This document shows, piece after piece, positions 20,152-40,458 of a stretch of 64,000 nucleotides of DNA. This stretch comes from Gammaproteobacteria bacterium (lineage in GTDB: Bacteria; Pseudomonadota; Gammaproteobacteria; JBCCGL01): NCBI GenBank assembly GCA_965277715.1, contig OZ255836.1, positions 2,784,001 to 2,848,000 of the forward strand, written 5' to 3'. Within the stretch, counting starts at the first letter, position 1. The number at the start of each line of letters is the position of its first letter. The notes beneath the pieces are model-generated. The model searched no databases. It had not been told where the DNA came from and saw only the letters and a program-made list of their open reading frames with translations. The position numbers were made by a program, and so were the translations under genes.

Positions 20152-20476
20152 TCTACGCAACTATGTAACCCTCTAAATGCCTTTAGAAAATTAACGATGG
20201 CCTCTGGATCCATTTTCGATTGAGGGAATTTATGCTTAAGAATTAAAAAAAAATTAATTAAAATTGGTTGCCCCTGAAATTTTCTGCTACTCTAACTATA
20301 GTTAGAAAACAATAATACTAAATATCAAAGGCCTCTGTATTGTTTTTAGTATCAAAATGAGAAAAGTATAGCGATATGAATCAGCCACTTACAAAAATAT
20401 CTCAATACTTGGGAAGAATTAAGAGGCCACCTCATAATAATGTTACAGAGGTCTTTGGCCTTTGTAACATACTGTT
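20152..20476 (+). repeat. attI-like platform, copy 1 of 4
   Basis: Near-identical to 28400-28722, 30509-30746 and 40239-40430; ends TGTTACAGAGG-tctttgg-CCTTTGTAACA-TACT-GTT; IHF-consensus match AATCAGCCACTTA at 20379-20391. Confidence 0.8.
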
Positions 20477-20501
20477 AGCTTCTCCGGAGAAATAGAGAAT
20501 T

Positions 20502-21257
20502 ATGTGGGGGTTTTCTGGATCAGTTGAATACGTATGCGATGGCTGTGGAGCTAGTGGTGAGGTTCCCATAGTAGATTTCTCTGTAGAGTGTGTGGGTGGC
20601 GGTGATCGCCAAATGGGGCCAGAAAACTTATATGATGTAATTTATGAGTTCGAGTGTGCCGACTGTGGTGTAGATATCTCGCTTAACTTTCAAGTATCTG
20701 AGTATCCAACAGAAGTACTAAATTTCATACTAAACAACTCAACTGGGGCACAAACTGAGGGTGAACCGGGATTTGAGTATGTTAGAGAAATTTACAGTGC
20801 GAGAGATTTATTTTATCTACATGAATCAATTTCAGAACTGATCACGGCTTTGAAAGAAGATGATCAGCTTCTTAGTGCAATAACATCTCGTCAGTTCGAG
20901 GAAATTGTTGCTGAAGTCTTTAAGTCTAAAGGTTATGAAGTAGAATTAACTAAAAAGACAAGAGATGGCGGCAAGGATATTATTGCTATCCACACTGACT
21001 CATTAGACATAAGAAATAAGTACTTTATTGAGTGCAAATATTACGCGGAAAGTAACAAAATTAGTGTTGATGTAGTGCGCGCACTATATGGGGTTAAGAA
21101 TACGATGGATGGCCCTAATAAAGCAATCGTAGTGACGACTTCGACTTTCACTAGTGATGCGAGAAAGTTTGTAGAAAATGAGGCATCTAGCAGTTGGGAT
21201 TTATCTCTGGTAGATAGAGAGCAGCTACTTCAGTGGTTAAATGAGTACAAAAGCTAA
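20502..21257 (+). CDS. Gene cassette: Zn-ribbon plus Mrr-type (type IV) restriction endonuclease
   Basis: CDGC...CADC; RQFEEIVAEVF, TRDGGKDI, FIECK, VVTTSTFT; followed by attC. Confidence 0.85.
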   Translation: MWGFSGSVEYVCDGCGASGEVPIVDFSVECVGGGDRQMGPENLYDVIYEFECADCGVDISLNFQVSEYPTEVLNFILNNSTGAQTEGEPGFEYVREIYSARDLFYLHESISELITALKEDDQLLSAITSRQFEEIVAEVFKSKGYEVELTKKTRDGGKDIIAIHTDSLDIRNKYFIECKYYAESNKISVDVVRALYGVKNTMDGPNKAIVVTTSTFTSDARKFVENEASSSWDLSLVDREQLLQWLNEYKS

Positions 21258-21323
21258 CAAAGCGCTGCTGTCGGACAAATTCTCCGCTGCACTCCAAATT
21301 TGCCGTAGAGCGCGGCGTTATGC
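21252..21323 (+). other. Integron attC site
   Basis: R'' AGCTAAC ... imperfect palindrome ... R' GTTATGC, 72 bp; R'' complements GTTAGCT at the cassette start (20474). Confidence 0.92.
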
Positions 21324-21374
21324 AAGACGACTGACCTTCATCAGATGTAACAATGTAGCTACGCTGGAAACTAA

Positions 21375-23993
21375 ATGGCCCTTCTGAACGACATACTGAA
21401 TTGGACTGAATCTCTTACAACATGGCAAAGGGATGCATGTCGTCGCCTGTTCCAGAAAGAAGCTGAACTAGACGAAGCCGATTACTCTGAACTCTACAGT
21501 ATCCTCAAGACTGAGAACGGGATACAGATTGATGATGCCCCTGTTTCAGTCCCACTGACCGGTGATCATCTTCCTGCCGAGGTAGTCTCCGGTGACACTC
21601 TTACTCTTGTCGCTTTACGGGACTTGAAAAACGTTAATCAGATCCCGAGTGATCGCGCCCTAAATTTCTCAGAAGCAGGGATGACGGTTATCTATGGGGG
21701 GAATGGATCTGGCAAGTCAGGCTATGCACGCGTTATGAAGAGAGCCTGCCGGGCTAGAGATCAATCGGAGCCGATCCATCCCAATGCACACGATCCCACT
21801 GCAGCCGCGAAAGAACCGACGGCGAAGTTTGAAATACTAATTTCTGGCACCTCAGAAGAGGTTGCATGGTCACGCAACTCAACTCCGCCGGAACGCCTCT
21901 CCTCAATTTCCGTCTTCGATTCAAAGTGCGCTCGCTCATATGTCACAGCGGAGCAGGATGTCGCCTATCTCCCCTACGGTCTTGATATTGTTGAAAACCT
22001 CGCAAATCAAGTTCTCCCGAAACTTTCGGAGATGCTTGAATCAGAGGTCGGGGGAATAGATGTCAGCAAACTTCCTTTCGAGCACCTCCTTGGCGAAACT
22101 GAAGTAGGCAAAGTAGCTGAAGATCTTTCCGTCAAATCAGACACTGACGCAATTACTTTGCTCGGAACTTTCAGTGCAGAGGACGCACAGCGGCTAGCGG
22201 AGCTCGAAGCAGCTCTCAAGGAAGGTAATCCTCTGGCTAAAGCTGAAGAGGCTCGACTTTCAGGCATGCGTTTGAAGGCTTACTCAGAGAAACTAACTAA
22301 ACCTCTAAACTGGGTCAGTCCAGAAGCAGCTGAAAAACTTCAGAAACTCGACGAAGAAAAGACTATCGCAGAGGAAGCCGAGAAGAAAGCAGCAGATGCC
22401 TTACGCGCTGGGGAGGAGTTGCTACCTGGAACTGGAGACCAAGAATGGAAGCTGCTCTTTGAAGCAGCCAGACGCTACTCAACCGAAGCTGCGTATCCGG
22501 GAGAGGAGTTTCCATCTCCTGCCGAGGGAAAGGACTGCCCATTATGCCAAGAAGAGTTGCCTGAAAGTGGGTCTAAACGCCTCAAAAGATTTAACGAGTA
22601 TATCCAGAATGATGTCGCGACAACTGCCGACGCGGCACGTAAAAAGGTCGAAACAGCAAGGAGCAAGATTGAAACGGCAGAGCTTCAAATCACTCCAGAT
22701 AAAGCTCTAGGCGATGAACTCAAATCGTTAGATGACTCAGTTCTTCAATCAATCAGTGATTTCCAAACTTCCATCGATTTACGGCGGGATTCGATGCTTG
22801 AGTGCCTCGGAACATCTAAATGGGTTGAGATCCCTGTTTTGATTGACTCCCCAAGGAGCCTAGTTAGGCAGCTTGCCGCGCAGCAACTGCAGGTATTTCG
22901 CACACTGGTCAAAGCGGCGGACGAAGATAAGCGGATAAAGCTCGAGAAAGAACACCGCGAACTTTTGGCGAGGCAAAATCTATCCAAGTGCTTAAAGGCC
23001 GTCCTTGAATTGCTTGATCGCATGAAGACAAAGGCGGCACTTGAAAAGTGCAGGCCCTGTCTCAAAACTCGTCCGATTTCTGACAAGTCGAAGGAGTTTT
23101 CCACTGTCGCTGTAACTGATGAGCTCAGGAAAGCCCTCGACAAAGAGTTCAATGTGCTAGGCATCGGTCACATCAAGACGAAGCTGAAGGAAAAAAGCGT
23201 CCGAGGCAAGATGCTTCACCAACTATTGCTCGACCTGCCAATTGCAAACAAGATCGAAGAAATTTTGAGCGAAGGTGAGCAGCGTGCTATTGCACTGGGT
23301 TCATTTTTTGCCGAATTAGCCCTCGCTAATCACTCGTGCGGAATTGTCTTCGATGATCCTGTATCGTCTTTAGATCATTGGCGTCGCCTTAATGTGGCAC
23401 GCAGGTTGGTGGAGGAAGCGAAGAGTCGGCAAGTCATCGTGTTCACTCATGACACTTCGTTTCTTGGCCAATTATGCGACGAAATCGAAGCTGAGGGCAT
23501 TCCGAGTTCAAAATCGTTTTTGGAATGGCGTGGCGGCTTACCAGGTAGCGTAAACGATGGTCTTCCTTGGGATCACCAAAGCTACAAAGCACGAATCAAC
23601 TCTCTCGAACAAGCGCAGAACAAGTTAGCTAAGGCTTGGCCAGCGTATCCGGGTGAGGCCGAGATTAGCGCAATAAGACATGAGTACGACCGTTTACGAG
23701 CTACGCTCGAACGGGTCATTCAGGATGTTGTTTTTAATGGTGTTGTAAAGCGGTATCGAGACTGGATACGAGTTGACTCTCTTGAAGATGTTGTAGGCTT
23801 TGATCGGCCTGAGTATGAAGCGATCGAGAAGCTACACAAGCGAAGCTGTGATGTAGTAACTGCACACGATCCTGCGTCAGCGAAGGCCGCAGCTGTTCCA
23901 ACGGCGACAGATCTCGGAAATGATATATCTGCTTTGAAGACTATTGTTAAAACTATTAAAAACCGTAGAAAGGCCGCAAAGGCAGCGTCTTAG
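21375..23993 (+). CDS. Gene cassette: RloC-like SMC/ABC ATPase with coiled coil and zinc hook
   Basis: GGNGSGKSG, CPLCQ hook, LSEGEQR, FDDPVSSLD, VFTHD. Confidence 0.8.
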   Translation: MALLNDILNWTESLTTWQRDACRRLFQKEAELDEADYSELYSILKTENGIQIDDAPVSVPLTGDHLPAEVVSGDTLTLVALRDLKNVNQIPSDRALNFSEAGMTVIYGGNGSGKSGYARVMKRACRARDQSEPIHPNAHDPTAAAKEPTAKFEILISGTSEEVAWSRNSTPPERLSSISVFDSKCARSYVTAEQDVAYLPYGLDIVENLANQVLPKLSEMLESEVGGIDVSKLPFEHLLGETEVGKVAEDLSVKSDTDAITLLGTFSAEDAQRLAELEAALKEGNPLAKAEEARLSGMRLKAYSEKLTKPLNWVSPEAAEKLQKLDEEKTIAEEAEKKAADALRAGEELLPGTGDQEWKLLFEAARRYSTEAAYPGEEFPSPAEGKDCPLCQEELPESGSKRLKRFNEYIQNDVATTADAARKKVETARSKIETAELQITPDKALGDELKSLDDSVLQSISDFQTSIDLRRDSMLECLGTSKWVEIPVLIDSPRSLVRQLAAQQLQVFRTLVKAADEDKRIKLEKEHRELLARQNLSKCLKAVLELLDRMKTKAALEKCRPCLKTRPISDKSKEFSTVAVTDELRKALDKEFNVLGIGHIKTKLKEKSVRGKMLHQLLLDLPIANKIEEILSEGEQRAIALGSFFAELALANHSCGIVFDDPVSSLDHWRRLNVARRLVEEAKSRQVIVFTHDTSFLGQLCDEIEAEGIPSSKSFLEWRGGLPGSVNDGLPWDHQSYKARINSLEQAQNKLAKAWPAYPGEAEISAIRHEYDRLRATLERVIQDVVFNGVVKRYRDWIRVDSLEDVVGFDRPEYEAIEKLHKRSCDVVTAHDPASAKAAAVPTATDLGNDISALKTIVKTIKNRRKAAKAAS

Positions 23994-24002
23994 CAAAGCA
24001 AT

Positions 24003-24074
24003 GCATAACAAGGCGCTGCTGTCGGACAAATTTTCCGCTGCGCTCCAAATTTGCCGCAGAGCGCGGCGTTAGAT
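24003..24074 (+). other. Integron attC site
   Basis: R'' GCATAAC ... R' GTTAGAT; near-identical to 21252-21323; R'' complements GTTATGC at 21317. Confidence 0.92.
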
Positions 24075-24181
24075 GCCAAATGGAGTTCTGATTTGAGACC
24101 TGTATATTTTCTTTTTTTACTATCTATTTCTGGTGTTTTGTGGGCACAACAAATGAAAAGGGGTCAATCCTATTTAAAATG

Positions 24182-25196
24182 AAAAGGGGTCAATCCTATT
24201 TAATATTTTCAAAATAGTATAAATTTAAACGATGCCTAAACCTACTCGAATACAATACGAAAATGCCTACTACCACGTTATGAATCGTGGCAAAGCCAGA
24301 CAGACCATCTTTCATGGCGAAATTTACTACCAGGCATTTCTACAAACGCTCGATGAAGCACATAAACGCTTTGATGCCTACATCCACGCTTACTGTTTGA
24401 TGGGTAATCATTATCATCTATTGATCGAAACCCCTCGTGCTAATCTGGATCGCATCATGCGGCATATCAATGGTATCTACACACAACGCTACAACCGGCT
24501 TAGACGCACGGATGGGCCTCTTTTTCGCGGTCGTTATAAAGCGATTATTGTGGATGCAGACGACTACTTATTACCCTTAAGCCGTTACATTCATCGTAAC
24601 CCAATAGAAGTAAAGGGTGTAACAGCAGATAAGCTCGATAGCTATTCCTGGTCGAGTTACCACGCTTACATCAACCAAGCCAAAGCACCGGAATGGTTGT
24701 ATCGAGAGGCAACCTATAGTGCACTCGGCGCTAAACAACGTTACGTTGCTTATAAGACATATGTTGGTCAAGGTATTGATGAGGGCATTAGCCGTTTTTA
24801 TAACAAAGGCAATGTGACGACGATACTGGGTGACAAATCCTTCAAGACGTATATTGCCGAAAACCGGGAGTCGATGCACATATCGGGGGACTTGTCCCGT
24901 ATTGTGACGGACAAGCCAAACGGTGCAGCTATAGTCGATGCAGTGGCAGCGGTGTTTGGCGTTAACGCGAGTGATGTACTTACGCGACAGCGGGGGAGAC
25001 AACGGGCGAATCTGCCTCGTAAAGTAGCGATATATTGTTGTCAGCAATTGGGAGATATGCCGTTAAAAACGCTGGTTGAGTAGCCTTTCTCCTGCAATTG
25101 ATTATGTAAAGAGTGGGCTGTCAACGGCGGCGTGAAGGGCGTGTTTGAGCAGGTTTGCAACCGTTTGAAAAATATTAAATACGATTGACCCCTTTT
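24182..25196 (+). mobile_element. RAYT-like element type B, copy 1 (small 3' deletion gives a premature stop; CDS 24232-25083)
   Basis: TIR AAAAGGGGTCAATC / GATTGACCCCTTTT; left end duplicated (26 bp, 24151-24202); HUH and YIHRNP motifs. Confidence 0.85.
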
Positions 25197-25390: not shown

Positions 25391-26851
25391 TTGATTAATA
25401 TAGATAATGATACAAAAGAGCCTCATTTTGGGCGTCTTCTGCTGCCAAGCAATATTGCAGACAAAGAGTTAGATCTCTCTGTATATGTTCATCGACAAGA
25501 GTGCCATGAAAAGATAGTTCAGCAAATAATCAGCTCTTACAAACAAAGAACCACAGGTGCGATTGCAATATGTGGCTCTCCAGGATCCGGAAAGTCAACG
25601 ATAGTAAGGTTTTTATATGATTATCTATCTAGCCAAAAAGAATTCACCCCGACCATTACCAGCATAGACTTTGAAGACGATGTTGGCTTCCCTCAAGGTT
25701 TGCACCCCAAACCCTTGCTTGCTGATCACTTTGCAAGTTTCTTTTCTAGGTTAGAAAGAGAGTTAGTTGCGGCAGGATCAACTCTTAACCCATTGAGAGA
25801 AAAAATTAGACCTCTGCAAAAAAGATATAAAAAATTTTTCGAGAATATAAAAGAAGAATATCCTAATAACAATCAACTAGAAATAGCTTTTGATGCTGTT
25901 CGAGATGCAATTTTCCCTAGAATAGCCACTATCGACAAAGAGTTGGTAATTTTCTGTGATAATTTAGATTTTCTTACAGCCTCTGATCAAATATTTTTTA
26001 TTGGTATGCTAGGAATGATGACAGAGACAAATAATAAAATAAAGTGCGTTTTTACTTCCAGGCCACTAACAACAGCTAGAATTAGAAAGACGTTCCACGA
26101 TTATTTAAATAAAAAGCTACTAAGCGACAATTGTTTGGAAGATATAAGCGTAGGTGATTTTTTGGGAAAAAGATTTTCCGTGTCTGACTATATATTGAAG
26201 GATGTATTTAGCATAGAGAATTTGGAAATTATCAGAAAACTATCTGCCGGAAATAACCAAGATATATTGAACAATGTAGGATCACTTTTTAATTACTATA
26301 AAAAAAACCCGGATTTATTTCCTCTAAATAATCAAGATATGATGAGGTATCTTATTTTGGTGGAAAATGCTGTATCTAACCCAATACAGCATATAAATCA
26401 AGATGATGAAGTTCCATTAAAGTGGGTGATCATGTCCTTTCTGGTAGGAAAAATACCTATTGATTTATCTTTTTATGAACGCTTGAAACTTTTTATCGAT
26501 TCAATGACTGGAAAAATCGCAAGGAGAGTAGATAGGCAGAGGGTTGAATCAATTATATTTGAAATGATAAAAGGAGATTACTTTATTCGCCGGATTGACT
26601 TTATTAATCAAGAAATAGATGGGAGAAATCTAGCCAACCACCCGGAGCGTGTTGATGGCTCGATATGTTGCCTTACCGAGCGTGGTTTACTTATGTTTCA
26701 GAGCACAAAATTAATAACAGAAGTTTACCCTAACTTCTCATCCTATAGAAACTCGGTTAGAAAGTTTATTGGGAAATACGATACCAGCTCACATAAATTT
26801 TTCAGTGAAAATAACATGCTTGGCGAAAGCTGGATGGTTTATAAAAAATGA
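25391..26851 (+). CDS. P-loop NTPase, putative defence protein
   Basis: Walker A GSPGSGKST, Walker B IFCDNLD; very low GC; TTG start uncertain. Confidence 0.7.
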   Translation: MINIDNDTKEPHFGRLLLPSNIADKELDLSVYVHRQECHEKIVQQIISSYKQRTTGAIAICGSPGSGKSTIVRFLYDYLSSQKEFTPTITSIDFEDDVGFPQGLHPKPLLADHFASFFSRLERELVAAGSTLNPLREKIRPLQKRYKKFFENIKEEYPNNNQLEIAFDAVRDAIFPRIATIDKELVIFCDNLDFLTASDQIFFIGMLGMMTETNNKIKCVFTSRPLTTARIRKTFHDYLNKKLLSDNCLEDISVGDFLGKRFSVSDYILKDVFSIENLEIIRKLSAGNNQDILNNVGSLFNYYKKNPDLFPLNNQDMMRYLILVENAVSNPIQHINQDDEVPLKWVIMSFLVGKIPIDLSFYERLKLFIDSMTGKIARRVDRQRVESIIFEMIKGDYFIRRIDFINQEIDGRNLANHPERVDGSICCLTERGLLMFQSTKLITEVYPNFSSYRNSVRKFIGKYDTSSHKFFSENNMLGESWMVYKK

Positions 26852-27324
26852 ATTGGCATAATATCAATTATATTTCGGGGTCAAAATTTTTTATTTTTGC
26901 CAGCGTCGCTCATACTTTATTTGTTTTCGCTCTTAATATTGGAATATCCGAAGACATTTTAAACATAAGCACAAAACTAGCCGTAGTTGTAAATATGATC
27001 GTATTTATATATGTTCAATCTTCTTATGTAATATGCCCGGGGCCCCTAAAAGGAATTAAAAGTCTAAAACAGTTTTACGATGCTCATGTTTTTGAATTAG
27101 AAACAGAGTTAATGAAGATTGAATATATAAACCATCATTCAATTAAAGATGTTACAGAAGCCAGTGAAAAAGAAGATATATTGTTTTTTCATTTTAAAAA
27201 AGCTGATGACTCTCTTTCTCGTGTTAGATATTTTCTTACAACTATTTTAATTACAGCTCTAATATTCTATATTGCGATATCATTTATAGGCTTTTTTACC
27301 GTCATTAATGGAATATATTCGTGA
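26848..27324 (+). CDS. Membrane protein (about 3 TM) translationally coupled to the NTPase
   Basis: ATGA overlap; hydrophobic segments at both ends. Confidence 0.65.
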   Translation: MNWHNINYISGSKFFIFASVAHTLFVFALNIGISEDILNISTKLAVVVNMIVFIYVQSSYVICPGPLKGIKSLKQFYDAHVFELETELMKIEYINHHSIKDVTEASEKEDILFFHFKKADDSLSRVRYFLTTILITALIFYIAISFIGFFTVINGIYS

Positions 27325-27357: not shown

Positions 27358-28396
27358 AAAAGGGGTCAATCTTATTTAATATTTTCAAAATAGTATAAAT
27401 TTAAACGATGCCTAGACCTACTCGAATACAATACGAAAATGCCTACTACCACGTTATGAATCGTGGCAAAGCCAGACAAACCATCTTTCATGGCGAAATT
27501 TACTACCAGGCATTTCTACAAACGCTCGATGAAGCACATAAACGCTTTGATGCCTGCATCCACGCTTACTGTTTGATGAGTAATCATTATCATCTATTGA
27601 TCGAAACCCCTCGTGCTAATCTGGATCGCATCATGCGGCATATCAATGGTATCTACACACAACGCTACAACCGGCTTAGACGCACGGATGGGCCTCTTTT
27701 TCGCGGTCGTTATAAAGCGATTATTGTGGATGCAGACGACTACTTATTACCCTTAAGCCGTTACATTCATCGTAACCCAATAGAAGTAAAAGGTGTAACA
27801 GTGGATAAGCTCGATAGCTATTCCTGGTCGAATTACCACGCTTACATCAACCAAGCCAAAGCACCAGAATGGTTGCATCGAGAGGCAACCTATAGTGCAC
27901 TCGGCGCTAAACAACGTTACGTTGCTTATAAGACATATGTTGGTCGAGGTATTGATGAGGACATTAGCCGTTTTTATAACAAAGGCAATGTGGCGACGAT
28001 ACTGGGTGACAAATCCTTCAAGACGTATATTGCCGAAAACCGGGAGTCGATGCACATATCGGGGGACTTATCCCGTATTGTGACGGACAAGCCAAACGGT
28101 GCAGCTATAGTCGATGCAGTGGCAGCGGTGTTTGGCGTTAACGCGAGTGATGTACTTACGCGACAGCGGGGTAAACAACGGGCGAATCTGCCTCGTAAAG
28201 TAGCGATATATTGTTGTCAGCAATTGGGGGATATGCTGTTAAAAACGCTGGTTGATATGTTTGAATATAGTCGTGTTAGTAGCCTTTCTCCTGCAATTGA
28301 TTATGTAAGGAGTGGGCTATCAGACGGCAGCTTGAAGGGCGTGTTTGAGCAGGTTTGCAACCGTTTGAAAAATATTAAATACGATTGACCCCTTTT
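27358..28396 (+). mobile_element. RAYT-like element type B, copy 2 (intact)
   Basis: Perfect 14-bp TIR; the stop codon lies inside the right TIR. Confidence 0.88.
27408..28388 (+). CDS. Y1 HUH transposase with DnaA_C-like HTH, full length
   Basis: YHVMNRG, NHYHLL, RYIHRNP, YSWS; C-terminus PRKVAIYCCQQLGD. Confidence 0.9.
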   Translation: MPRPTRIQYENAYYHVMNRGKARQTIFHGEIYYQAFLQTLDEAHKRFDACIHAYCLMSNHYHLLIETPRANLDRIMRHINGIYTQRYNRLRRTDGPLFRGRYKAIIVDADDYLLPLSRYIHRNPIEVKGVTVDKLDSYSWSNYHAYINQAKAPEWLHREATYSALGAKQRYVAYKTYVGRGIDEDISRFYNKGNVATILGDKSFKTYIAENRESMHISGDLSRIVTDKPNGAAIVDAVAAVFGVNASDVLTRQRGKQRANLPRKVAIYCCQQLGDMLLKTLVDMFEYSRVSSLSPAIDYVRSGLSDGSLKGVFEQVCNRLKNIKYD

Positions 28397-28399: not shown

Positions 28400-28722
28400 T
28401 CTACGCAACTATGTAACCCTCTAAATGCCTTTAGAAAGTTAACGATGGCTTCTGGATCCATTTTCGGTTGAGGGAATCTATGCTTAAGAATTAAAAAAAT
28501 TAATTAAAATTGGCTGCCCCTAAAATTTTCTGCTACTCTAACTGTAGCTAGAAAACAATAATACTAAATATCAAAGGCCTCTGTATTGTTTTTAGTATCA
28601 AAATGAGAAAAATATAGCGATATGAATCAGCCACTTACAAAAATTTCTCAATACTTGGGAAGAATTAAGAGGCCACCTCATAATAATGTTACAGAGGTCT
28701 TTGGCCTTTGTAACATACTGTT
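28400..28722 (+). repeat. attI-like platform, copy 2
   Basis: Begins directly after the RAYT right-end T tract; identity with copy 1 ends a few bases after GTT (28720). Confidence 0.8.
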
Positions 28723-29659: not shown

Positions 29660-30340
29660 TATTTTCAAAATAGTATAAATTTAAACGATGCCTAGACCTA
29701 CTCGAATACAATACGAAAATGCCTACTACCACGTTATGAATCGTGGCAAAGCCAGACAGACCATCTTTCATGGCGAAATTTACTACCAGGCATTTCTACA
29801 AACGCTCGATGAAGCACATAAACGCTTTGATGCCTGCATCCACGCTTACTGTTTGATGGGTAATCATTATCATCTATTGATCGAAACCCCTCGTGCTAAT
29901 CTGGATCGCATCATGCGGCATATCAATGGTATCTACACACAACGCTACAACCGGCTTAGACGCACAGATGGGCCTCTTTTTCGCGGTCGTTATAAAGCGA
30001 TTATTGTGGATACAGACGACTACTTATTACCCTTAAGCCGTTACATTCATCGTAACCCAATAGTGGCAGCGGTGTTTGGCGTTAACGCGAGTGATGTACT
30101 TACGCGACAGCGGGGGAGGCAACGGGCGAATCTGCCTCGTAAAGTAGCGATATATTGTTGTCAGCAATTGGGAGATATGCCGTTAAAAACGCTGGTTGAT
30201 ATGTTTGTATATAGTCGTGTTAGTAGCCTTTCTCCTGCAATTGATTATGTAAAGAGTGGGCTGTCAGACGGCAGCTTGAAGGGCGTGTTTGAGCAGGTTT
30301 GCAACCGTTTGAAAAATATTAAATACGATTGACCCCTTTT
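29638..30340 (+). mobile_element. RAYT-like element type B, copy 3, with in-frame 336-bp internal deletion (CDS 29688-30332)
   Basis: Both TIRs present (left has one substitution); YIHRNPI joined to VAAVFG. Confidence 0.85.
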
Positions 30341-30800: not shown

Positions 30801-33071
30801 ATGGAATTCTGGTTATTAATAGGAGGCGCAGTAATTTTTTACTACGTCATCAAAGCAATGAAAACGCCTTCAAAGCAGCAAGTTCAGAAGAATAATAGAG
30901 CAATTTCCGAAAACGAAATCCGTGTAACCATGATTACGAGCAATCGGGTTGTAGCAAACAGTAATCATGATGATGATTTGGCTACCTTCGATATTTTATA
31001 TGGCTATGAGGAGGAAAAAAGCAAAAATAAAACGCCAGGGAAATGGATAAAATCCGGTGAAGCCATCACCATAAAGGGACAAAAATTTACTGGCGGTAAT
31101 TTTTATTTTGGTGGCAAGCTCAGTTCATTAGACGGATATGGAACTGAAGCGTCACTGGTTGACGATTCATTAAAGATTGAAAACAAACCGTCTAGTTTTG
31201 AAGATGATAGTTTAGGCTATTGGCCTAAATTTATCTCACTCTCACCTAAAGGGCGTGGTGCTTTCCTTAGCTGGCTATCTGGTAACAGAAGTGACTCAGA
31301 AACACCTTTGGGTTATGTGTTTATTTATTTCTATGGTATCGAAAGACGTATTACCGTTGATTCGATACATCAGACAGTAGATGACGCGGAATTTAAATCT
31401 TTGTTTGACGAAATACTACGATTAAAAGACATTTACGGCAGCAGTCGTTCTTTTTCAAATTATTCCACACGACTACTAGAATTTATGTGCTTGCTACGCC
31501 CTCAAGTAGTATCACATCCGGAGTTGGAAAAATTTCCTCAACGGGATTCTCTGTTATTTAAACATCGACTTGCCACTACAATCAGCGAGGAAAAGCCAGT
31601 TCCTGCTGAACTGGCATTGGCATGGATTCGATTTTATCCAGATTATAATCTGAAGAAACCAGCACGGCGTTGTAGCTATGAATTCAGCCAGATGTTTACA
31701 CGCCTCTATAGCAAAAAATATGGGGAAGGCATTGCTGTCAAGCCTAATAAAACACGGTTAAAGATAGAGTATCATCCTGCCAGCTCTTCTTTGCGCGGTA
31801 TATCGTTTCCTCAAAAGGATCTTCCTGATCCTAGTAATTTGAAAGGCCCTACAAATAAATTGATTGCCATCGCCGATGAATGTACAGCTGAGTTAGATGC
31901 TTATAGTCGATATCTTGCTAAATCCGATACGTCCCGCACGGATATTGAAGCCGTATTGCTATTACCAGATGAACTCAGTGACTTAGGATCTACGTTAGGG
32001 CTAGGGAAATTTAAGAAATGGGCAGATGATGCTATTTCAACAAAAAACGGTCTGGTCAATATCGAAGAATTCTGGACATATACCAAATCGCCTTTGCCTG
32101 CCAAGATCAATAAAAAGGAAGCTGAATTAATTCAAAATCTTGCTCAAAAAGCTGGTTATGGCATAGCACCTGATACACGTTACCATCATGCGAAGACGAG
32201 CGCTGATGGAAAGCTAGTTCTATTTCCTGAAGGACATGGTAAATACTTTGAACCCTCCAAAGCATATAGTGAAATGGGAATGGCACTGCGTTTAGGGGCT
32301 ATGGTTGCCACAATTGATTCACATGTGGATCAGGTGGAATTACATTTATTAACTCAGCTCATTGACCACGATACCAATTTATCGCCTACCGAGAAACGAT
32401 CATTACATGCCTATCTGGTATGGAGACTTAATACGCCTTCAAATGTCACGGGCTTAAAAGCCAGAGTGGAATTACTGGGTAAAACAGAAAAAGCAGCTGT
32501 TAGTCGTATATTGGTCGGTGTTGCGATGGTCGATGGAAAAATTGATCCGGAAGAAATCAAACAGCTTGAAAAGCTCTATACCTTGCTTGGTCTTGATAAA
32601 GCCCTTGTTACTGGAGACATTCATGGAATGTCATCAAGTAAAGCAGGAGCACAACCCGCCAACCCTCAATCAGAGACTATTTCGCCAGCTTCCACTACAT
32701 TCCAGCTCGATGAAAGTATCCTCGCAATACATGAGTCGGAAACCAAAGATGTACAAAGCATGTTAGGCGCTATATTCGTGGAGAACGAACCCGAAGGTGA
32801 ATCCGATGGCTCAGCTACGGATAACTCTGTAGTAGAGGAAGAAACCGGAATTGATAAACCGCATTATGCTTTGTTTGAAAGCTTGATACGAAAAGATAAA
32901 TGGACTCGTGAAGAAGTGGAAGCACTGTGCCGTGATTCTGCTCTGATGGTTAGCGGAGCATTGGAAACTATTAATGACTGGTCATTTGAAAAAGTGGATG
33001 CAGCTGTACTTGAAGAGGATGGTGATGCTATTTATGTCGACCAGGAAATCGTAGAAGAGATAGAAGGTTAA
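30801..33071 (+). CDS. TerB_N/TerB/TerB_C domain protein
   Basis: N-terminal TM, LGYWP, GYVFIYFYGIERR, TerB-like VAMVDGKIDPEE, LETINDWSFE. Confidence 0.85.
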   Translation: MEFWLLIGGAVIFYYVIKAMKTPSKQQVQKNNRAISENEIRVTMITSNRVVANSNHDDDLATFDILYGYEEEKSKNKTPGKWIKSGEAITIKGQKFTGGNFYFGGKLSSLDGYGTEASLVDDSLKIENKPSSFEDDSLGYWPKFISLSPKGRGAFLSWLSGNRSDSETPLGYVFIYFYGIERRITVDSIHQTVDDAEFKSLFDEILRLKDIYGSSRSFSNYSTRLLEFMCLLRPQVVSHPELEKFPQRDSLLFKHRLATTISEEKPVPAELALAWIRFYPDYNLKKPARRCSYEFSQMFTRLYSKKYGEGIAVKPNKTRLKIEYHPASSSLRGISFPQKDLPDPSNLKGPTNKLIAIADECTAELDAYSRYLAKSDTSRTDIEAVLLLPDELSDLGSTLGLGKFKKWADDAISTKNGLVNIEEFWTYTKSPLPAKINKKEAELIQNLAQKAGYGIAPDTRYHHAKTSADGKLVLFPEGHGKYFEPSKAYSEMGMALRLGAMVATIDSHVDQVELHLLTQLIDHDTNLSPTEKRSLHAYLVWRLNTPSNVTGLKARVELLGKTEKAAVSRILVGVAMVDGKIDPEEIKQLEKLYTLLGLDKALVTGDIHGMSSSKAGAQPANPQSETISPASTTFQLDESILAIHESETKDVQSMLGAIFVENEPEGESDGSATDNSVVEEETGIDKPHYALFESLIRKDKWTREEVEALCRDSALMVSGALETINDWSFEKVDAAVLEEDGDAIYVDQEIVEEIEG

Positions 33072-33075
33072 ACTG

Positions 33076-34401
33076 ATGAAAAAACGTATCCGATTAAAAG
33101 AACGTGACGCAATCATTCAATCACTGAAGTCAGGCGTGACCCCCAAAATTGGGATTCAGCATATTCAGGTAGGACGAAGCAATGAAGTCAAAGCGTTGTA
33201 TAAAGACATCGAACGAATCTCGGAAGGTGGCGCAGCATTCAGGCTTATTATTGGCGATTACGGATCAGGGAAAACGTTTTTCTTAAGCGTGGTGCGTTCC
33301 ATTGCTCTTGAAAAGAAGCTGGTTACAGTCAATGCAGACCTCTCACCAGATCGACGCGTACATGCTTCTTCAGGTCAGGCACGGAATCTATATTCTGAAC
33401 TAATGAGGAATCTGGCAACCCGTAATAAGCCGGATGGAAATGCGTTAGCCAGTGTTGTAGAGCGTTTTGTAACTCAGGCTCGTAAAGAAGCAGATGAAAA
33501 GAACACCGACGTTTCTACAGTAATTCATCAAAAATTAGCGTCCTTGTCAGAATTGGTTGGTGGATACGATTTTGCAAAAGTCATTGATGCCTACTGGAAT
33601 GGTCATGAGCAGGATAACGAAGAGTTAAAATCAAATGCTATTCGTTGGTTACGTGCTGAATACACTACCAAGACAGATGCAAGAAGGGATCTTGATGTCA
33701 GAACAATTATTTCGGACAACTCGTTTTACGATGCGTTAAAACTTATGAGCCTATTTGTGCGTCAGGCGGGTTATGAAGGCTTACTTGTTAATCTGGATGA
33801 GATGGTCAATCTTTATAAATTAAGCAGCACACAAGCACGTACATCTAACTATGAGCAGATTCTTCGGATACTCAACGATTGCCTGCAGGGTTCGGCTGAA
33901 TATCTTGGGTTTTTATTGGGTGGAACGCCGGAGTTTTTATTAGACCCCCGCAGAGGATTATATAGTTATGAAGCACTGCAATCCCGTTTAGCTGAAAATA
34001 GCTTTGCGCAACGTGCGGGTGTTATTGATTATTCATCACCTGCACTACATCTAGCGAGCTTAACACCAGAGGAGCTTTATATTCTCCTGAAGAATCTTCA
34101 TCATGTCTTTGCCGAAGGTGATACATCTAAATATCTAGTGCCTAATGATGCACTGAAATCCTTTTTACACCATTGTAGCCAGACTATCGGTGATGCCTAT
34201 TTTCGCACACCGAGAAATACCATCAAAGCATTTTTAGATATGCTGGCAGTTTTGGAACAAAACCCTTCTATGCAATGGTCACAGTTAGTTCAATCTATAG
34301 CGATTGAGGATGATCGACCAAGTGATACAGATGAGATTATGGTGGATGAAAAAACAGGCGAAATTTTGAATTCTGATGGACTAGCTGATTTCAAATTATG
34401 A
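33076..34401 (+). CDS. DUF2791/BrxD-like P-loop ATPase
   Basis: SLKSGVTP, GDYGSGKTF, LDEMVN, YSYEALQSRL. Confidence 0.88.
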   Translation: MKKRIRLKERDAIIQSLKSGVTPKIGIQHIQVGRSNEVKALYKDIERISEGGAAFRLIIGDYGSGKTFFLSVVRSIALEKKLVTVNADLSPDRRVHASSGQARNLYSELMRNLATRNKPDGNALASVVERFVTQARKEADEKNTDVSTVIHQKLASLSELVGGYDFAKVIDAYWNGHEQDNEELKSNAIRWLRAEYTTKTDARRDLDVRTIISDNSFYDALKLMSLFVRQAGYEGLLVNLDEMVNLYKLSSTQARTSNYEQILRILNDCLQGSAEYLGFLLGGTPEFLLDPRRGLYSYEALQSRLAENSFAQRAGVIDYSSPALHLASLTPEELYILLKNLHHVFAEGDTSKYLVPNDALKSFLHHCSQTIGDAYFRTPRNTIKAFLDMLAVLEQNPSMQWSQLVQSIAIEDDRPSDTDEIMVDEKTGEILNSDGLADFKL

Positions 34402-36602
34402 TAGAGGAATATCAGCGCCTTGATAAGCGTGTACAAAAATGGTTATTTAATCAGGGATGGCCTGATTTAAGAGAAATACAAAAACGGTCAATTGCACCAA
34501 TTCTGTCAGGTGATAGAGATGTACTGATTAGTGCGTCAACAGCGGCAGGTAAAACAGAAGCTTTTTTTCTGCCCGCATGTAGCTCTATTGCTGAAGAGGA
34601 AAACGGCTTTGGTATTTTGTATATCAGTCCTTTAAAAGCATTGATTAACGATCAGTACCGCAGGCTCGAATCGTTAAGTGAAATGTTGGATATGCAGGTT
34701 ACGCCGTGGCACGGTGATAGCCTTCACTCCAAAAAGAAGAAAGCTAGAAGCAACCCTTCAGGTATTCTGCTTATTACCCCTGAATCCCTGGAATCCCTCT
34801 TAGTTAGAGAGCCGGGATGGGTCAAGCAATCCTTCACCTCACTCAAATATATCGTCATTGATGAATTTCATGCGTTTATCGGAACAGAACGAGGACAGCA
34901 ATTACTTTCTCTGCTTACCCGCCTCGAACACTTAACTGGTCGAATCTCTAATCCCATTCCACGGGTTGCACTAAGTGCGACACTCGGAGAGCTTGAAAAA
35001 GTACCGTTATCTCTCAGGCCGAATAAAAGTCTGCCTTGTGAAACCATTACCAGTAGCCAGCACCAAAGCACTATTAAAGTTCAGGTTAAAGGATATTTAG
35101 AACCTGTAGATATTTTGGCTGATGATACACACACATCTGCAGAACAGCAGATTTGTCAGGAAATATTTAGGCTCTGTAGAGGCGACTCACATCTGGTATT
35201 TGCAAATAGCCGTAGCCGAACAGAAAGCATTGCTGCACAGTTAAGTGATTTATGCGAACAACAAGTTGTACCGAATGAGTTTTTCCCTCATCACGGCTCA
35301 TTAGCCAAAGAACTCAGAGAAGATCTAGAAGCCAGATTACAGAAGGAAACCCTACCTACTACAGCTATTTGTACCATGACCCTAGAGCTAGGTATCGACA
35401 TTGGAAAAGTGAGTTCCATCATTCAGGTTACTGCTCCACACTCAGTATCAAGTTTACGTCAACGATTAGGTCGATCTGGTAGAAGGAATTCCCCTTCCAT
35501 ATTGCGTATGCTTATTTCTGAAGATGAACTAAGTGATAAATCTAATATAGTAGATGATCTTAGATTAGAGCTGGTTCAATCACTAGCAATGATACGTTTG
35601 CTGATTGTAGATAACTGGTTTGAACCGGCAGATACAGAGCAAATGCATCTCTCTACCTTTTTACATCAGATTCTAGCTGTCATTGCGCAATGGGGTAGCG
35701 TCAGAGCAGACCAGCTTTATTCTTTATTATGTGAGCAAGGGTCGTTCAAAGAAATATCAATTCAGCACTTCAAGCAACTATTGTCCCATATGGGGACAGT
35801 CCAACTAATACAGCAACTCAATAGCGGTGAGTTGGTTTTAGGAATTGAAGGTGAACGTCTTACCAATTCCTATACCTTCTATGCTGTCTTTAAAACACCA
35901 GAAGAATTCCGTATTGTTACCGGAGGCAAAACACTCGGTACGCTACCTGTTGATTCATTACTCCTTAAAGATCAGCACATTATATTTGGTGGCCGTAGAT
36001 GGAAGGTCACGGATATTGACGATGAAAAGAAAGTCATCTATGTGACTTCTACAAAGGGCGGTAAACCTCCCAAATTTAACGGTAACGGCATGTCGATTCA
36101 TGACAGGGTTCGACAAGAGATGCTAAGTATCTATTGCACAGGTGACTATCGTATTGAGGTTGGTAACCAGAAAATAGATTTTGTAGATGATCTCGGAAAG
36201 CAGTTATTTCAAGATGGAGCATATTTTTTTAAAGAAGCCAACCTTGAAAACCAACCTATCTATCAAAGCGGTAAGTATAGTTATATTTTTTCATGGATGG
36301 GCGATAAAGTAGTTAACACCCTTACCGTTTTGCTCATTAGAAGTGGGTTTGTATGCAGTAATTTTGCTGGCGTTATTGAAGTTCAGAATTCGAGTGTCGA
36401 TGACATAAAAAATTGCTTAATAGATATAGCAAAAGATGATCTACTGGATGAAACCGAACTGGCTGGAATACTTTCATTAAATCAAAAGCTTATAGAAAAA
36501 TATGATGAGTATCTACCTGATGATTTACTAACCGAATGCTATGGACTAAAAGCATTTAATTCTAGGATTACTAAACAGTGGATATTAAGCAACCTTGTCT
36601 GA
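34398..36602 (+). CDS. Lhr-like DEAD/DEAH-box helicase
   Basis: TAAGKTEA, DEFH, LSAT, HHGSL, LELGIDIG, QRLGRSGRR. Confidence 0.9.
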   Translation: MIEEYQRLDKRVQKWLFNQGWPDLREIQKRSIAPILSGDRDVLISASTAAGKTEAFFLPACSSIAEEENGFGILYISPLKALINDQYRRLESLSEMLDMQVTPWHGDSLHSKKKKARSNPSGILLITPESLESLLVREPGWVKQSFTSLKYIVIDEFHAFIGTERGQQLLSLLTRLEHLTGRISNPIPRVALSATLGELEKVPLSLRPNKSLPCETITSSQHQSTIKVQVKGYLEPVDILADDTHTSAEQQICQEIFRLCRGDSHLVFANSRSRTESIAAQLSDLCEQQVVPNEFFPHHGSLAKELREDLEARLQKETLPTTAICTMTLELGIDIGKVSSIIQVTAPHSVSSLRQRLGRSGRRNSPSILRMLISEDELSDKSNIVDDLRLELVQSLAMIRLLIVDNWFEPADTEQMHLSTFLHQILAVIAQWGSVRADQLYSLLCEQGSFKEISIQHFKQLLSHMGTVQLIQQLNSGELVLGIEGERLTNSYTFYAVFKTPEEFRIVTGGKTLGTLPVDSLLLKDQHIIFGGRRWKVTDIDDEKKVIYVTSTKGGKPPKFNGNGMSIHDRVRQEMLSIYCTGDYRIEVGNQKIDFVDDLGKQLFQDGAYFFKEANLENQPIYQSGKYSYIFSWMGDKVVNTLTVLLIRSGFVCSNFAGVIEVQNSSVDDIKNCLIDIAKDDLLDETELAGILSLNQKLIEKYDEYLPDDLLTECYGLKAFNSRITKQWILSNLV

Positions 36603-36714
36603 GTGGCCAATCTGCAAATAAAAGGGTTATATGTGGACCCGCAGTTAAATTCAACAATTTTTTAATCGTTTATTCATTTTTTAGCGTTCAGTTCAGTCAC
36701 AGTAAATAAGACAG

Positions 36715-37557
36715 AAAGGGGGCAGGTTAGTTATTTAACATAGATTATGTCAATATCACCCCATGCCAAGGCCTCACCGCATAGAATATGAAAACGCCTT
36801 CTACCATATAATGAACCGTGGTCGGGAGCGTAAGACGGTTTTTCATAGCGAAGCTTACTACCAAGCGTTTCTCGCCACATTGACCGAAGCCGCAGAGCGT
36901 TTTCACGCCGTGATTCACGCTTATTGCCTAATGGGCAACCACTACCACCTACTGCTGGAAACACCTGATGCTAACCTCAGTCGCATTATGCAGCATATCG
37001 ATGGTGTCTATACACGGCGTTATAACCGCCTTAAAAAAACGGATGGTCCTCAGTTTAGAGGGCGATTTAAAGCCATCAATGTCGATGAACATGCGTATCT
37101 ATTACCCCTGTCTCGCTATCTACATAGAAACCCCATTGAGACTAAAAAAATAACCTATCGACGGTGTTAGGTGACAAGGTGTTCCGCTCACAGTTGGCCG
37201 AGTACAAAGAAAGCCAGAGTGGCGTTGATGTGTGGTCCCAATTGCGGGAAAAGGTAGCCAGCAGTGTGATAGTAAAAACGCTGGCAAATTGTTGCCGAGT
37301 GAGTGAAGGCAGTGTTTCGGATAGTCAAGGTAAGGGAGGTAGCGCGAACACTCAACGCAAATTGGCCATGTACTATTACCAGCGATTTGGTAGTATGTCG
37401 TTAAAGGCGATTACTCAACATTTTGGGTTAAGTCACCCTGGTGGTGTGTCGAGTGCAATAGCTCACGTCAAGAAGGCGCTAGACAAGGGGGAACTTAAAG
37501 AGGTGGTGCATCAAATTGAAAACCAGCTAAATAGTAAATAACTTGCCTGATCCCTTT
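36715..37557 (+). mobile_element. RAYT-like element type A, copy 2, frameshifted by a ~190-bp deletion
   Basis: Near-identical to 4893-5925; split ORFs 36763-37170 and 37164-37541; degenerate TIRs. Confidence 0.85.
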
Positions 37558-37670: not shown

Positions 37671-38723
37671 ATGACCCTGCTGATTCTTTATCTGGCGCTC
37701 GCAATCGGAGTTTCTTTTCTCTGCTCCATTCTGGAGGCCGTATTGCTCTCGATGACTCCAGCGTATATGGAGCAAATCAAATCGAAGAAACCACGGCTCG
37801 GGGCCAGACTGGCGCGGATCAAGGAGCGGCTGGACGAATCGCTTGCCAGCATTCTGATACTCAATACTTTTGCCCATACTATGGGAGCCGCTGGTGTCGG
37901 CTCACAGGCGCTGCAGGTGTTCGGTCAGAAATGGGAAACGCTGATCGCGATATTATTGACTCTGGCAATTCTCTATTTTTCTGAGATTATACCCAAGACT
38001 CTGGGGGCTACTTTTTGGCGGCAACTGGCGCTGCCTTCCGCCATTTTGATCTCTTGGCTGGTCAAACTGGTGTTTCCACTGGTGTGGATATCGACCCGTT
38101 TGACGAAGTTAATCAGCGGCAATAAGGAGAATGAAATTACCCGAGAGGAGATTATTGCCCTGGCCTCCCTCGGTCACAAGGACGGTAATCTGTTTTCCCA
38201 GGAAAACGAGTATCTGCTGAATCTGTTAAACCTGCGCAAGGTGAGAACCGAGGGGATATTCACCCCCCGGTCGGTAGTACACATGTTGCACCAAAATGTG
38301 ACCGTCAAAGAAGCTCTGGATGACCCGGAGAGTCAACAATTTACCCGGATTCCTGTCTACGGCGACAGCGTTGATGATATTAAGGGCAAAGTGATTCGAC
38401 CGGATTTATTCGAGGCGGAACGCAACGGTCAGGGCGGGGCCTGCGTAGGCGATTACATCAAGCCACTTTCCCGCGTGTCAGAAAAACTGCCGGTCCAGCA
38501 TCTGCTGGATTTATTTATCCGGCAAAAAGCGCATATGTGTCTGGTAGAGGATGAATTCGGTCAAACCGCCGGGATCGTTACCCTGGAAGACGCGATCGAA
38601 ACCCTGTTAGGTAAAGAAATTGTCGATGAGCGGGACACGGTGGAAGACATGCAGGAACTGGCGCGGGATAAATACCGCGCGCGTTTGCGCAAAGAGAAAT
38701 CCCGGCGAAAATCGGACGGTTAA
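37671..38723 (+). CDS. CNNM/DUF21-CBS (hemolysin/CorC-like) membrane protein
   Basis: SFLCSILEAVLLS, SEIIPKTLG, TPRSV, FTRIPVY, DEFGQTAGIVTLED. Confidence 0.92.
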   Translation: MTLLILYLALAIGVSFLCSILEAVLLSMTPAYMEQIKSKKPRLGARLARIKERLDESLASILILNTFAHTMGAAGVGSQALQVFGQKWETLIAILLTLAILYFSEIIPKTLGATFWRQLALPSAILISWLVKLVFPLVWISTRLTKLISGNKENEITREEIIALASLGHKDGNLFSQENEYLLNLLNLRKVRTEGIFTPRSVVHMLHQNVTVKEALDDPESQQFTRIPVYGDSVDDIKGKVIRPDLFEAERNGQGGACVGDYIKPLSRVSEKLPVQHLLDLFIRQKAHMCLVEDEFGQTAGIVTLEDAIETLLGKEIVDERDTVEDMQELARDKYRARLRKEKSRRKSDG

Positions 38724-38789: not shown

Positions 38790-39492
38790 AAAAGGGGTCA
38801 ATTCTATTTAATATTTTCAAAATAGTATAAATTTAAACGATGCCCAGACCTACTCGAATACAATACGAAAATGCCTACTACCACGTTATGAATCGTGGCA
38901 AAGCCAGACAGACCATCTTTCATGGCGAAGTTTACTACCAGGCATTTCTACAAACGCTCGATGAAGCACATAAACGCTTTGATGCCTACATCCACGCTTA
39001 CTGTTTGATGGGTAATCATTATCATCTATTGATCGAAACCCCTCGTGCTAATCTGGATCGCATCATGCGGCATATCAATGGTATCTACACACAACGCTAC
39101 AACCGGCTTAGACGCACGGATGGGCCTCTTTTTCGCGGTCGTTATAAAGCGATTATTGTGGATACAGACAACTACTTATTACCCTTAAGCCGTTACATTC
39201 ATCGTAACCCAATAGTGGCAGCGGTGTTTGGCGTTAACGCGAGTGATGTACTTACGCGACAGCGGGGGAGACAACGGGCGTATCTACCTCGTAAAGTAGC
39301 GATATATTGTTGTCAGCAATTGGGAGATATGCCGTTAAAAACACTGGTTGATATGTTTGGATATAGTCGTGTTAGTAGCCTTTCTCCTGCAATTGGTTAT
39401 GTAAAGAGTGGGCTGTCAGACGGCAGCTTGAAGGGCGTGTTTGAGCAGGTTTGCAACCGTTTGAAAAATATTAAATACGATTGACCCCTTTT
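38790..39492 (+). mobile_element. RAYT-like element type B, copy 4, same in-frame deletion as copy 3 (CDS 38840-39484)
   Basis: TIRs AAAAGGGGTCAAT / ATTGACCCCTTTT; identical deletion junction CCCAATAG|TGGCAGCG. Confidence 0.85.
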
Positions 39493-39855: not shown

Positions 39856-39890
39856 TCGTGCCATCACTAACAAAGGAGGCAGCATCGAGC

Positions 39891-40091
39891 GCCACTTCCT
39901 TAAGCGGTAAGCATTTGGTATATATCCGATAAAATTTAGATATAAGTGGCTCATTTTTGTTTTTTGGGATGCCCATATCTTTTAACAGCTTCCCTTGCTA
40001 CAGGCCTTGGCTGCATGAGTAAAAGGCAAGGTTTTGGGCTTCGCTTAACAGCCCTTGGCTCTACTCGACTGGGACGATTACCCACACAGTT
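39891..40091 (-). mobile_element. IS4 3' remnant related to 962-2527
   Basis: Minus strand NCVGNRPSRVEPRAVKRSPKPCLLLMQPR...GHPKKQK*; partial TIR CACTTCCTTAAGC. Confidence 0.8.
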
Positions 40092-40238
40092 ATTTTATGG
40101 GCAGTTATTTTATGGGTGTCTACTTTTTGTGAGCACTTATAGTGCGCTTGCTGTATCGACGCACCTGCATAAATTCAGATATAGACGTGAGAAATGGTGA
40201 TTTACTCATAGCGAAGTCCTTTTCGAAAACCATAAATA

Positions 40239-40430
40239 TGCTATTCTAACTGTGGCTGGAAAACAACAATACTAAATATCAAAGGTCTCTGTATTATTTT
40301 TAGTATCAAAATGAGATAAAATATAGCGATATGAATCAGCCACTTACAAAAATGTCTCAATACTGGTAAGAATTAAGAGATCACCTCATAATAACGTTAC
40401 AGAGGTCTTTGGCCTTTGTAACATACTGTT
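40239..40430 (+). repeat. attI-like platform, copy 4 (shortest and most diverged)
   Basis: Ends TGTAACATACT-GTT at 40428. Confidence 0.8.
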
Positions 40431-40458
40431 ATAAGTCATTCGGAGTTACTTTAATATA

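Follow-up and report, generated by a model that had tools for sequence, protein, structure and literature searches.

The attI site is unknown for most integrons and, in the part of the text available, was not searched for in the survey of Cury et al. 2016 (PMC4889954). The same part proposes integrase loss as one origin of attC-site clusters that have no integron integrase (CALINs), reports that an intI pseudogene was close by in 15 of 279 CALINs, and describes that such pseudogenes were sought through the C-terminal domain of the integrase (PMC4889954). More than one attI site is recorded for the complex class 1 integron of Salmonella genomic island 1 (SGI1), in which the available text describes two attI sites, each with its own cassette (PMC7056807). 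In sedentary integrons, as far as the available text goes, the arrays store anti-phage genes, whose expression comes from the first position at attI (bioRxiv 10.1101/2024.07.02.601686). The transposons named TIRYT encode Y1 proteins with Bac_DnaA_C or helix-turn-helix (HTH) tails and have inverted repeats with the core GGGG[AT][CG]A[CG], according to the sections available of Quentin et al. 2018 (PMC6006769). Here we analysed a 64,000-nucleotide stretch of a gammaproteobacterial genome (contig OZ255836.1, positions 2,784,001 to 2,848,000, hereafter the window), which contains four direct copies of a non-coding block, each followed by a different cargo (Table 1). With a probability of roughly 0.78, we take this block to comprise the attI site and the intI-attI spacer of a decayed and rearranged chromosomal integron, of which the attI was amplified to four copies in a 23-kb phage-defence island.

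Compared with two sedentary chromosomal integrons of relatives, L081 (in a metagenome-assembled genome of Candidatus Endobugula) and L083 (Exilibacterium tricleocarpae), the locus showed the same arrangement of a divergent intI that starts 186-320 nt from the site, a palindrome followed by 5 nt and ACTG|TTA, a first cassette starting from TTA, and an attC family starting with TAACAA. The differences are that intI is cut to 25 codons here, that the site is present fourfold, that three copies have other sequence in place of intI, and that two copies are joined to cargo without attC.

Several attI sites with different cassettes in one structure are also the feature shared with SGI1. The second attI of SGI1 arose by partial duplication of the conserved segments. 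SGI1 differs in being a mobile class 1 structure with resistance cassettes and two sites instead of four, and it has neither TIRYTs nor defence cargo. With the CALINs, as characterised in the available part of PMC4889954, the locus shares two small attC clusters (2 + 2, by our own scans and not by IntegronFinder) without a nearby intI, but its attI was identified and is multiple. Because pseudogenes were sought there through the C-terminal domain, an N-terminal stub such as the one found here would escape that search, and so would a multiplied attI. The defence cassettes of bioRxiv 10.1101/2024.07.02.601686 belong to single-attI arrays and are bounded by attC, and the available main text of that work contains neither 'Shango' nor 'AbiH'. 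In a search of open-access text for a second or additional attI, the papers found gave, as far as they were read, no account of a chromosomal array that has more than one attI.

Table 1. Coordinates in the window of the block copies, cargo, integrase remnant and TIRYT elements
Feature	Coordinates	Strand	Remarks
TIRYT gene, sixth, second family	4909..5877	-	322 aa; outside the array; flanked by the end motif of the second family
PIF1/RecD-like helicase gene	17909..20137	+	742 aa, C-terminal HTH_40; Pfam PIF1 2e-25, HTH_40 1e-22
Block copy 1 (attI + upstream spacer)	20152..20474	+	Crossover G 20474; repeat search, alignment, core match
Cassette 1	20475..21317	+	Mrr-type restriction-endonuclease-like gene 20502-21257; attC 21252-21323; Pfam Mrr_cat 3e-27; PADLOC PDC-S02
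Cassette 2	21318..24068	+	872-aa AAA_13/SMC-type ATPase 21375-23993; attC 24003-24074; PADLOC PDC-S06 2.8e-189
TIRYT A	24156..25196	+	Gene 24232-25083; 3' damage by 23-bp and 1-bp deletions; left inverted end twice in tandem
STAND module	25391..27324	+	STAND/NPHP3-type NTPase, 486 aa, and 158-aa ORF; no block before, no attC after, no PADLOC hit
TIRYT B	27358..28396	+	Gene 27408-28388, 326 aa; only intact copy; right end abuts block copy 2
Block copy 2	28400..28720	+	Crossover G 28720; left end as in copy 1
AbiH abortive-infection gene	28745..29659	+	Pfam AbiH 1.6e-70; after copy 2; no attC after
TIRYT C	29638..30340	+	214 aa; 336-bp internal deletion
Block copy 3	30509..30744	+	Crossover G 30744; 5'-truncated at TTAAGAATT; about 165 bp of unique DNA before
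Shango system	30801..36602	+	SngA (TerB domains), SngB (BrxD-like ATPase), SngC (DEAD helicase); PADLOC 2.7e-95, 5.9e-187, 1.1e-269
TIRYT D, second family	36713..37555	+	64% identical to A; frameshifted into open reading frames of 135 aa and 125 aa
CNNM/CBS-domain membrane protein gene	37671..38723	+	350 aa; no block before, no attC after, no PADLOC hit
TIRYT E	38790..39492	+	Same 336-bp deletion derivative as C
Half attC	39865..39910	+	R''/L''-like start TCACTAACAAAGG..., without R' partner; after 79-aa zinc-ribbon ORF 39616-39855
intI stub	40135..40209	-	Opening 25 codons of intI, MSKSPFLTSISEFMQVRRYSKRTIS, then 4 unrelated codons and a stop; tblastn
Block copy 4 (intI-attI spacer + attI)	40226..40428	+	Crossover G 40428; most divergent copy
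Cassette after copy 4	40429..40790	+	93-aa ORF 40459-40740; attC 40735-40796; R'' complementarity
Last cassette	40791..41403	+	184-aa ORF 40773-41327; attC 41322-41409, last attC of the array

The repeated block and its boundaries

We searched 18-43 kb for repeats and aligned the four copies; this delimited the block at 20152-20476 (325 bp), 28400-28722, 30509-30746 and about 40226/40239-40430. All four copies ended in ...GTAACATACTG|TTA, and the crossovers were placed at 20474|5, 28720|1, 30744|5 and 40428|9. A 21-nt core, GGCCTTTGTAACATACTGTTA, was found exactly four times in the window, without mismatches and always on the + strand, and it had no match in 100 shuffles. Pairwise identity over the last 195 nt was 96-98% among copies 1 to 3, and 90-92% between these and copy 4. 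In all four copies the final 25 nt were invariant, and 35 of the 40 columns beyond the crossover G were variable. The cargo genes of copies 1, 2, 3 and 4 started 27, 24, 56 and 30 nt after this G.

The left ends were ragged. Copies 1 and 2 both began with CTACGCAACT..., copy 3 began with TTAAGAATT 85 nt further inward, and the similarity of copy 4 was gradually lost 14-25 nt short of the start codon of an intI remnant (described below). Inside the block we found a palindrome, TGTTACAGAGG / CCTTTGTAACA, with 10 of 11 positions paired, and a word resembling the binding site of integration host factor (IHF), WATCARNNNNTTR, at the equivalent position in 4/4 copies, judged by a relaxed consensus. 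The first-pass annotation of this DNA, made from the letters and open reading frames (ORF), had described a block at four positions with one sharp 3' end, ragged 5' ends, a hairpin, an IHF consensus and an unrelated gene shortly after the end, and all of these were recovered.

The predicted RNA folding of the block exceeded that of shuffled sequences (z -3.6). The Rfam scan of the window gave nothing at gathering level, and on copy 2 only chance-level matches (E 0.8-9.5). With four near-identical copies to go by, a non-coding RNA reading of the block was dropped.

The helicase gene to the left stops at 20135-20137, and copy 1 begins 15 nt later. This helicase stands where the left neighbour of an integron platform would be, and it gave weak PADLOC matches to the candidates PDC-S68 and PDC-M16A. 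The first 62 nt of copy 1 contain a minus-strand open start of 21 codons (M at 20213-20211), of uncertain origin; the similarity of this open start in copies 1 and 2 to IntI is weak, 34 of 2000 shuffles scoring equally high. Before copy 3, the minus-strand ORF in the unique stretch gave no Pfam family, and the guess that this stretch is a nucleotidyltransferase fragment was dropped for lack of Pfam support.

Cassette junctions and cargo

Crossover in an attI takes place at G|TT of the GTT core. At copies 1 and 4, the bases past this G were the reverse complement of the R'' box of the next attC, over 8/8 and 13/13 positions respectively. In copy 1 the cassette start GTTAGCTT corresponds to R'' AAGCTAAC, and in copy 4 the cassette start GTTATAAGTCATT corresponds to R'' AATGACTTATAAC. 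This complementarity, already pointed out in the first-pass annotation and now confirmed, indicates the scar of a cassette circle inserted at G|TT by an integron integrase.

In the region 17900-42100 we found four full attC sites and one half site (39868), using our own signature scans and not IntegronFinder's model. The attC of cassette 2 was 94% identical to that of cassette 1. The cargo is largely anti-phage, as proposed before, and includes the Mrr-type nuclease, the PDC-S06 ATPase, the STAND NTPase, AbiH and a complete Shango SngABC, for which the identifications came from Pfam and PADLOC. All cargo lies on the strand of the attI copies.

The complete Shango system begins 56 nt past the attI crossover of copy 3 and has no attC at its end. 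After AbiH, Shango, the CNNM gene and the STAND module, a TIRYT stands at the position expected for attC, and the left inverted end of TIRYT C overlaps the last 7 codons of the AbiH gene. No attC halves were found flanking the TIRYTs at these four places, so that a loss of attC through TIRYT-linked rearrangement is something we only infer.

Remnant of the integrase gene

Seven IntI proteins from five related genomes were compared with the window by tblastn. On the minus strand at 40129-40224 we found matches to IntI of L083 (59% over 32 aa, E 1.5e-6) and of L081 (63% over 27 aa, E 2e-4), and none of 2000 shuffles reached the score of the stub peptide against IntI N-termini. The start codon of this stub is 221 nt from the crossover of copy 4, in divergent orientation, and the position of an attI beside the 5' end of intI was therefore seen for copy 4 only. 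The earlier statement that no intI is adjacent to the block is wrong for copy 4, which abuts the stub, and a platform built without integrase from the beginning gives way to a decayed integron. With a 25-codon stub only, the locus is not a complete integron, which has an intact intI, an attI and at least one attC. Apart from the stub, the seven IntI proteins gave no match with E <1e-3 in the array.

The half attC lies just left of the stub, and looks like what is left of a cassette that was joined to the broken intI. Just past the break of intI, a 15-nt word, CAGTTATTTTATGGG, is present twice in tandem (40088-40117). Loose contig ends at 39953 and 39987 in two public sequencing runs, X1 and X5, point to a further repeat at this place.

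Far from the array, at 776-932 (+), there are further short tblastn matches to IntI, 54-56% identical over 27-28 aa (L088, E 9e-6; L082, E 0.08). This stretch lies just upstream of a DDE transposase gene and may be another integrase fragment.

Comparison with attI sites of relatives

Seven intI loci of relatives were examined and five were aligned, leaving out L087, which has no crossover word within 520 nt, and L084, which was ambiguous. In these five relatives with intact intI, the distance from crossover to intI start was 186, 229, 269, 273 and 320 nt. CTG|TTA was present at the crossover in 5/5 aligned attI sites, and CTGTTA in 7/7 rows of the alignment. A palindrome stands 5 nt ahead of the crossover word in three relatives (L081, L083 and L086), so the site design of the block, namely palindrome, 5 nt and ACTG|TTA, is the same as that beside intact intI in relatives. 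The word ATAATRAT before the palindrome was shared by the block, L081 and L083, and the word ATACTGTTAG by the block and L081. In L081 the R'' of the first cassette's attC is the reverse complement of the bases past G at 8/8 positions, which confirms the crossover position in that integron.

The palindrome has been kept through change: across 6 sequences from 5 sources, both sides were altered in 7 of 14 predicted pairs. The attC sites of the window belong to the same family as those of the relatives, TAACAA being common to 14 of 15 aligned attCs. IntI above the family cut-off was encoded in 5/5 related genomes searched, at 9 places and with 2-3 copies in several genomes, and a trans-acting IntI for the array is therefore plausible. 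Together, the stub beside copy 4, the site design of relatives and the cassette scars at copies 1 and 4 uphold the first-pass proposal of an attI-type block.

One genome of a related family (G557) contained a core-like sequence on a 773-nt contig (L094, 715-763, minus strand), 80% identical over 40 nt and beside a tRNA gene. The intact integron of this genome (L097) has a different attI from this core-like sequence, and a LexA-box-like palindrome at its intI.

It was raised from the beginning that the block might be the 3' part of an ordinary cassette or fold as a canonical attC, in which case a short attC would form the palindrome, and one cassette without ORF, of a kind common in large arrays, would be repeated four times. 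The last boxes (xxxxAAC, 5 nt, GTTAxxx) do resemble the right-hand half of an attC, copy 3 itself starts at G|TTAAGAA in the manner of a cassette, and the palindrome folds. However, the block did not have the properties of an attC when checked. No R'' able to pair with the bases past G was present before the palindrome, and the TAACAA start found in 14/15 attCs of the family is absent from the block. Copies 1 and 2 extend 100 bp more to the left, with no G|TT at the left end. The same design stands beside intact intI in relatives and beside the intI stub here, and a cassette origin of the block is extremely improbable.

TIRYT transposons in the array

Six TIRYT genes of two families, with Y1_Tnp and Bac_DnaA_C domains in Pfam, were found in the window, and five of them interleave the array as copies of an element of roughly 1 kb. 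The earlier sequence reading had missed all six. The inverted ends are 26 bp long, AAAAGGGGTCAATC(C/G)TATTTAATATT. The protein of TIRYT B matched the REP-associated tyrosine transposase at 8.9e-16, below the family cut-off.

These elements share with the TIRYTs, as described in the part available of PMC6006769, a Y1 HUH domain with a C-terminal HTH of the Bac_DnaA_C type, and terminal inverted repeats with a GGGG core, in which GGGGTCAA is near the published core; in family 1 the last base of the core is A instead of the published C/G. They differ from those described there in that they are multicopy, include a non-autonomous deletion derivative, and stand between cargo modules of an integron remnant. 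A place in IS200/IS605, which has subterminal hairpins, no inverted terminal repeats and a transposase of about 130-150 aa, does not agree with the 26-bp inverted ends and the 326-aa protein, and the NCBIfam IS200 score was 25 bits against a cut-off of 55.

TIRYT C and TIRYT E have an identical 336-bp internal deletion and different flanks on both sides. It follows that the mobile unit ends at the inverted repeats, and that a defective, non-autonomous derivative was moved. In runs X1, X3 and X5 the depth over the TIRYTs was several-fold above that of unique parts, this being summed contig depth and not copy number. Relatives of the TIRYTs were encoded in 572 of 590 candidate stretches of a genome collection, the best being 63% identical.

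A TIRYT lies upstream of three of the four blocks, at a distance of 0 to about 730 bp, and the TIRYTs of the array are all in one orientation. Copy 2 directly abuts the right end of TIRYT B, copies 3 and 4 follow TIRYTs at about 165 and about 730 bp, and a hairpin stands 5 nt ahead of the block boundary. One could therefore regard the block as the outer end of some larger element that the TIRYT transposase (HUH, single-strand) mobilises, with its 3' end a cleavage site past a hairpin, as at the right ends of IS200/IS605. Against this, the TIRYT ends are 26-bp inverted repeats, at which the mobile unit stops according to the flanks of C and E; no block follows TIRYT A and no TIRYT precedes copy 1. 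None of 80 TIRYT-homologue loci contained block-like sequence by blastn (best E 0.15), and a clear intI within 10 kb was present at 1 of the 80, so TIRYTs are not generally linked to integrons. Moreover, the cassette complementarity at G|TT is a signature of an integrase. We regard this explanation as very unlikely, and the TIRYTs of the array as a component separate from the block itself.

Elsewhere in the window, TIRYT-like end motifs, AAAGGGGTCA..., at 947-959 (+) and 2530-2542 (-) flank the DDE transposase gene 1019-2464. This may be an insertion sequence that entered a TIRYT-derived miniature element. A 193-bp repeat, 98% identical, brackets an RHS-repeat gene (2888-4699) at 2335-2527 and 4674-4866.

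Assembly support of the junctions

The idea that the copies are assembly artefacts was checked in public sequencing runs. Logan contigs of X1, X3, X4 and X5 crossed the junctions of block end and cargo of copies 1, 2 and 3, and the junction of copy 4 was spelled by a loose contig end in X3. X1-X3 may be the sample from which the window was assembled. X5, from a related strain, carried the helicase/block junction, the block, and the block-AbiH-TIRYT junction, so the layout is not private to one assembly. X5 had no cover over the cassettes of copy 1, the STAND module and Shango, which was not counted as evidence. The runs support the single junctions of copies 1-3, and the order of the modules was not covered by them.

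Evaluation of the integron reading and possible activity

Several results weigh against a decayed integron with amplified attI. No intact intI was found within the 64-kb window (Pfam on the submitted ORFs of at least 120 aa, and tblastn with the seven IntI), and copies 1-3 have no recognisable intI part; to this extent, the earlier label 'integrase-less' stands, with copy 4 and its stub as the exception. Copies 1 and 2 have an identical left end in different contexts (helicase and TIRYT B). The core pattern of the block gave 0 hits in genome contigs, 0 in metagenome contigs and 0 in plasmids, and among 277 genomes of one related family it gave the single core-like hit mentioned above, plus AT-rich chance hits. 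A block beside an intact intI was not found in any search (genome and metagenome contigs, plasmids, the 80 TIRYT loci and the 277 genomes), so that the check for further copies beside intI, suggested earlier, came out negative for intact genes and positive only for the stub at copy 4. Logan contigs break at repeats, and the long-range order of the modules is therefore supported by the assembly alone. In the signature scans of 17900-42100 no attC followed AbiH (copy 2) or Shango (copy 3); integrase-mediated loading is supported at copies 1 and 4, where attC is present, but not at copies 2 and 3 with their attC-less cargo.

The promoter search belongs to the same side. Only in copies 1 and 2 did a candidate promoter facing the cargo, TTGGGA-18-CATAAT, pass the scan, and no cargo-facing site was conserved in 4/4 copies. 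The sole promoter-like site present in 4/4 copies faces the opposite way, toward intI, and the counts of promoter-like sites in the blocks were not above those of shuffled sequence. The earlier description of the copies as promoter-proximal slots is not supported as it stands.

These results also bear on the alternative of a working integron with several slots, in which IntI acting in trans would serve four attI copies, each an expression-proximal entry point, and the modules bounded by two attI copies would be giant 'cassettes' using attI in place of attC and moving by attI x attI recombination, which would allow integrase to shuffle and capture cargo of several genes without attC. Such a system would account for attC-less multigene systems such as Shango exactly at G|TT. 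It is in agreement with four different cargos at one exact crossover, with the invariance of the last 25 nt in 4/4 copies although copy 4 is 8-10% diverged overall, with the position of all cargo on the strand of the attI copies, and with the presence of IntI in 5/5 related genomes, in several of them in 2-3 copies. A cassette at attI also gains expression, according to the available text of bioRxiv 10.1101/2024.07.02.601686. On the other side, a trans-acting IntI in the source genome is hypothetical and copy 4 has only a destroyed intI, the search gave no conserved promoter facing the cargo, and the gene fragments and TIRYT insertions give the impression of decay. Recombination of attI with attI is, in addition, inefficient in class 1 integrons. 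We consider a working system of this kind possible but rather unlikely, and take the decayed integron as the basis for the history of the locus.

Proposed history of the locus

A chromosomal integron of the type of related marine Gammaproteobacteria would have lost its intI, the stub at copy 4 marking the old platform. The attI module may then have been multiplied by unequal recombination between the direct repeats of TIRYTs, or by integrase-mediated exchange of attI with attI; the five interleaved TIRYTs probably explain the amplification. Since the four copies diverge at once past the crossover, beginning with the first base, each attI copy would have recombined separately at G|TT, giving the four different cargos, and we infer that the copies were filled independently as first positions. 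The partner at copies 1 and 4 was an ordinary attC cassette. The AbiH and Shango modules could be cassettes whose attC was lost in TIRYT-linked rearrangement, or they may have been joined through attI x attI or secondary-site events. Present activity of the array would need IntI encoded elsewhere in the genome.

As attI is mostly unknown and not searched for, arrays of this kind are filed as integrase-less attC clusters, and the history of the platform is lost. Here attI could be identified from the integrase stub and from relatives, and it is amplified. Active copies would mean that more than one point of entry and expression can exist in an integron, and that exchange of attI with attI can carry large attC-less defence systems, which bears on the way in which integrons acquire new cargo. 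Inert copies would make the locus a clear case of an integron that transposons dismantled into an ordinary defence island.

Other features of the window

Two further repeats lie outside the array. At 60851-62194 there are about 7 tandem copies of a 174-bp unit, 94-95% identical, in a very long ORF (59927-64000) that leaves the window. Inside a DAHL-domain histidine kinase gene (44917-46644), a 9-bp periodic repeat at 45877-46083 corresponds to an acidic proline-rich run.

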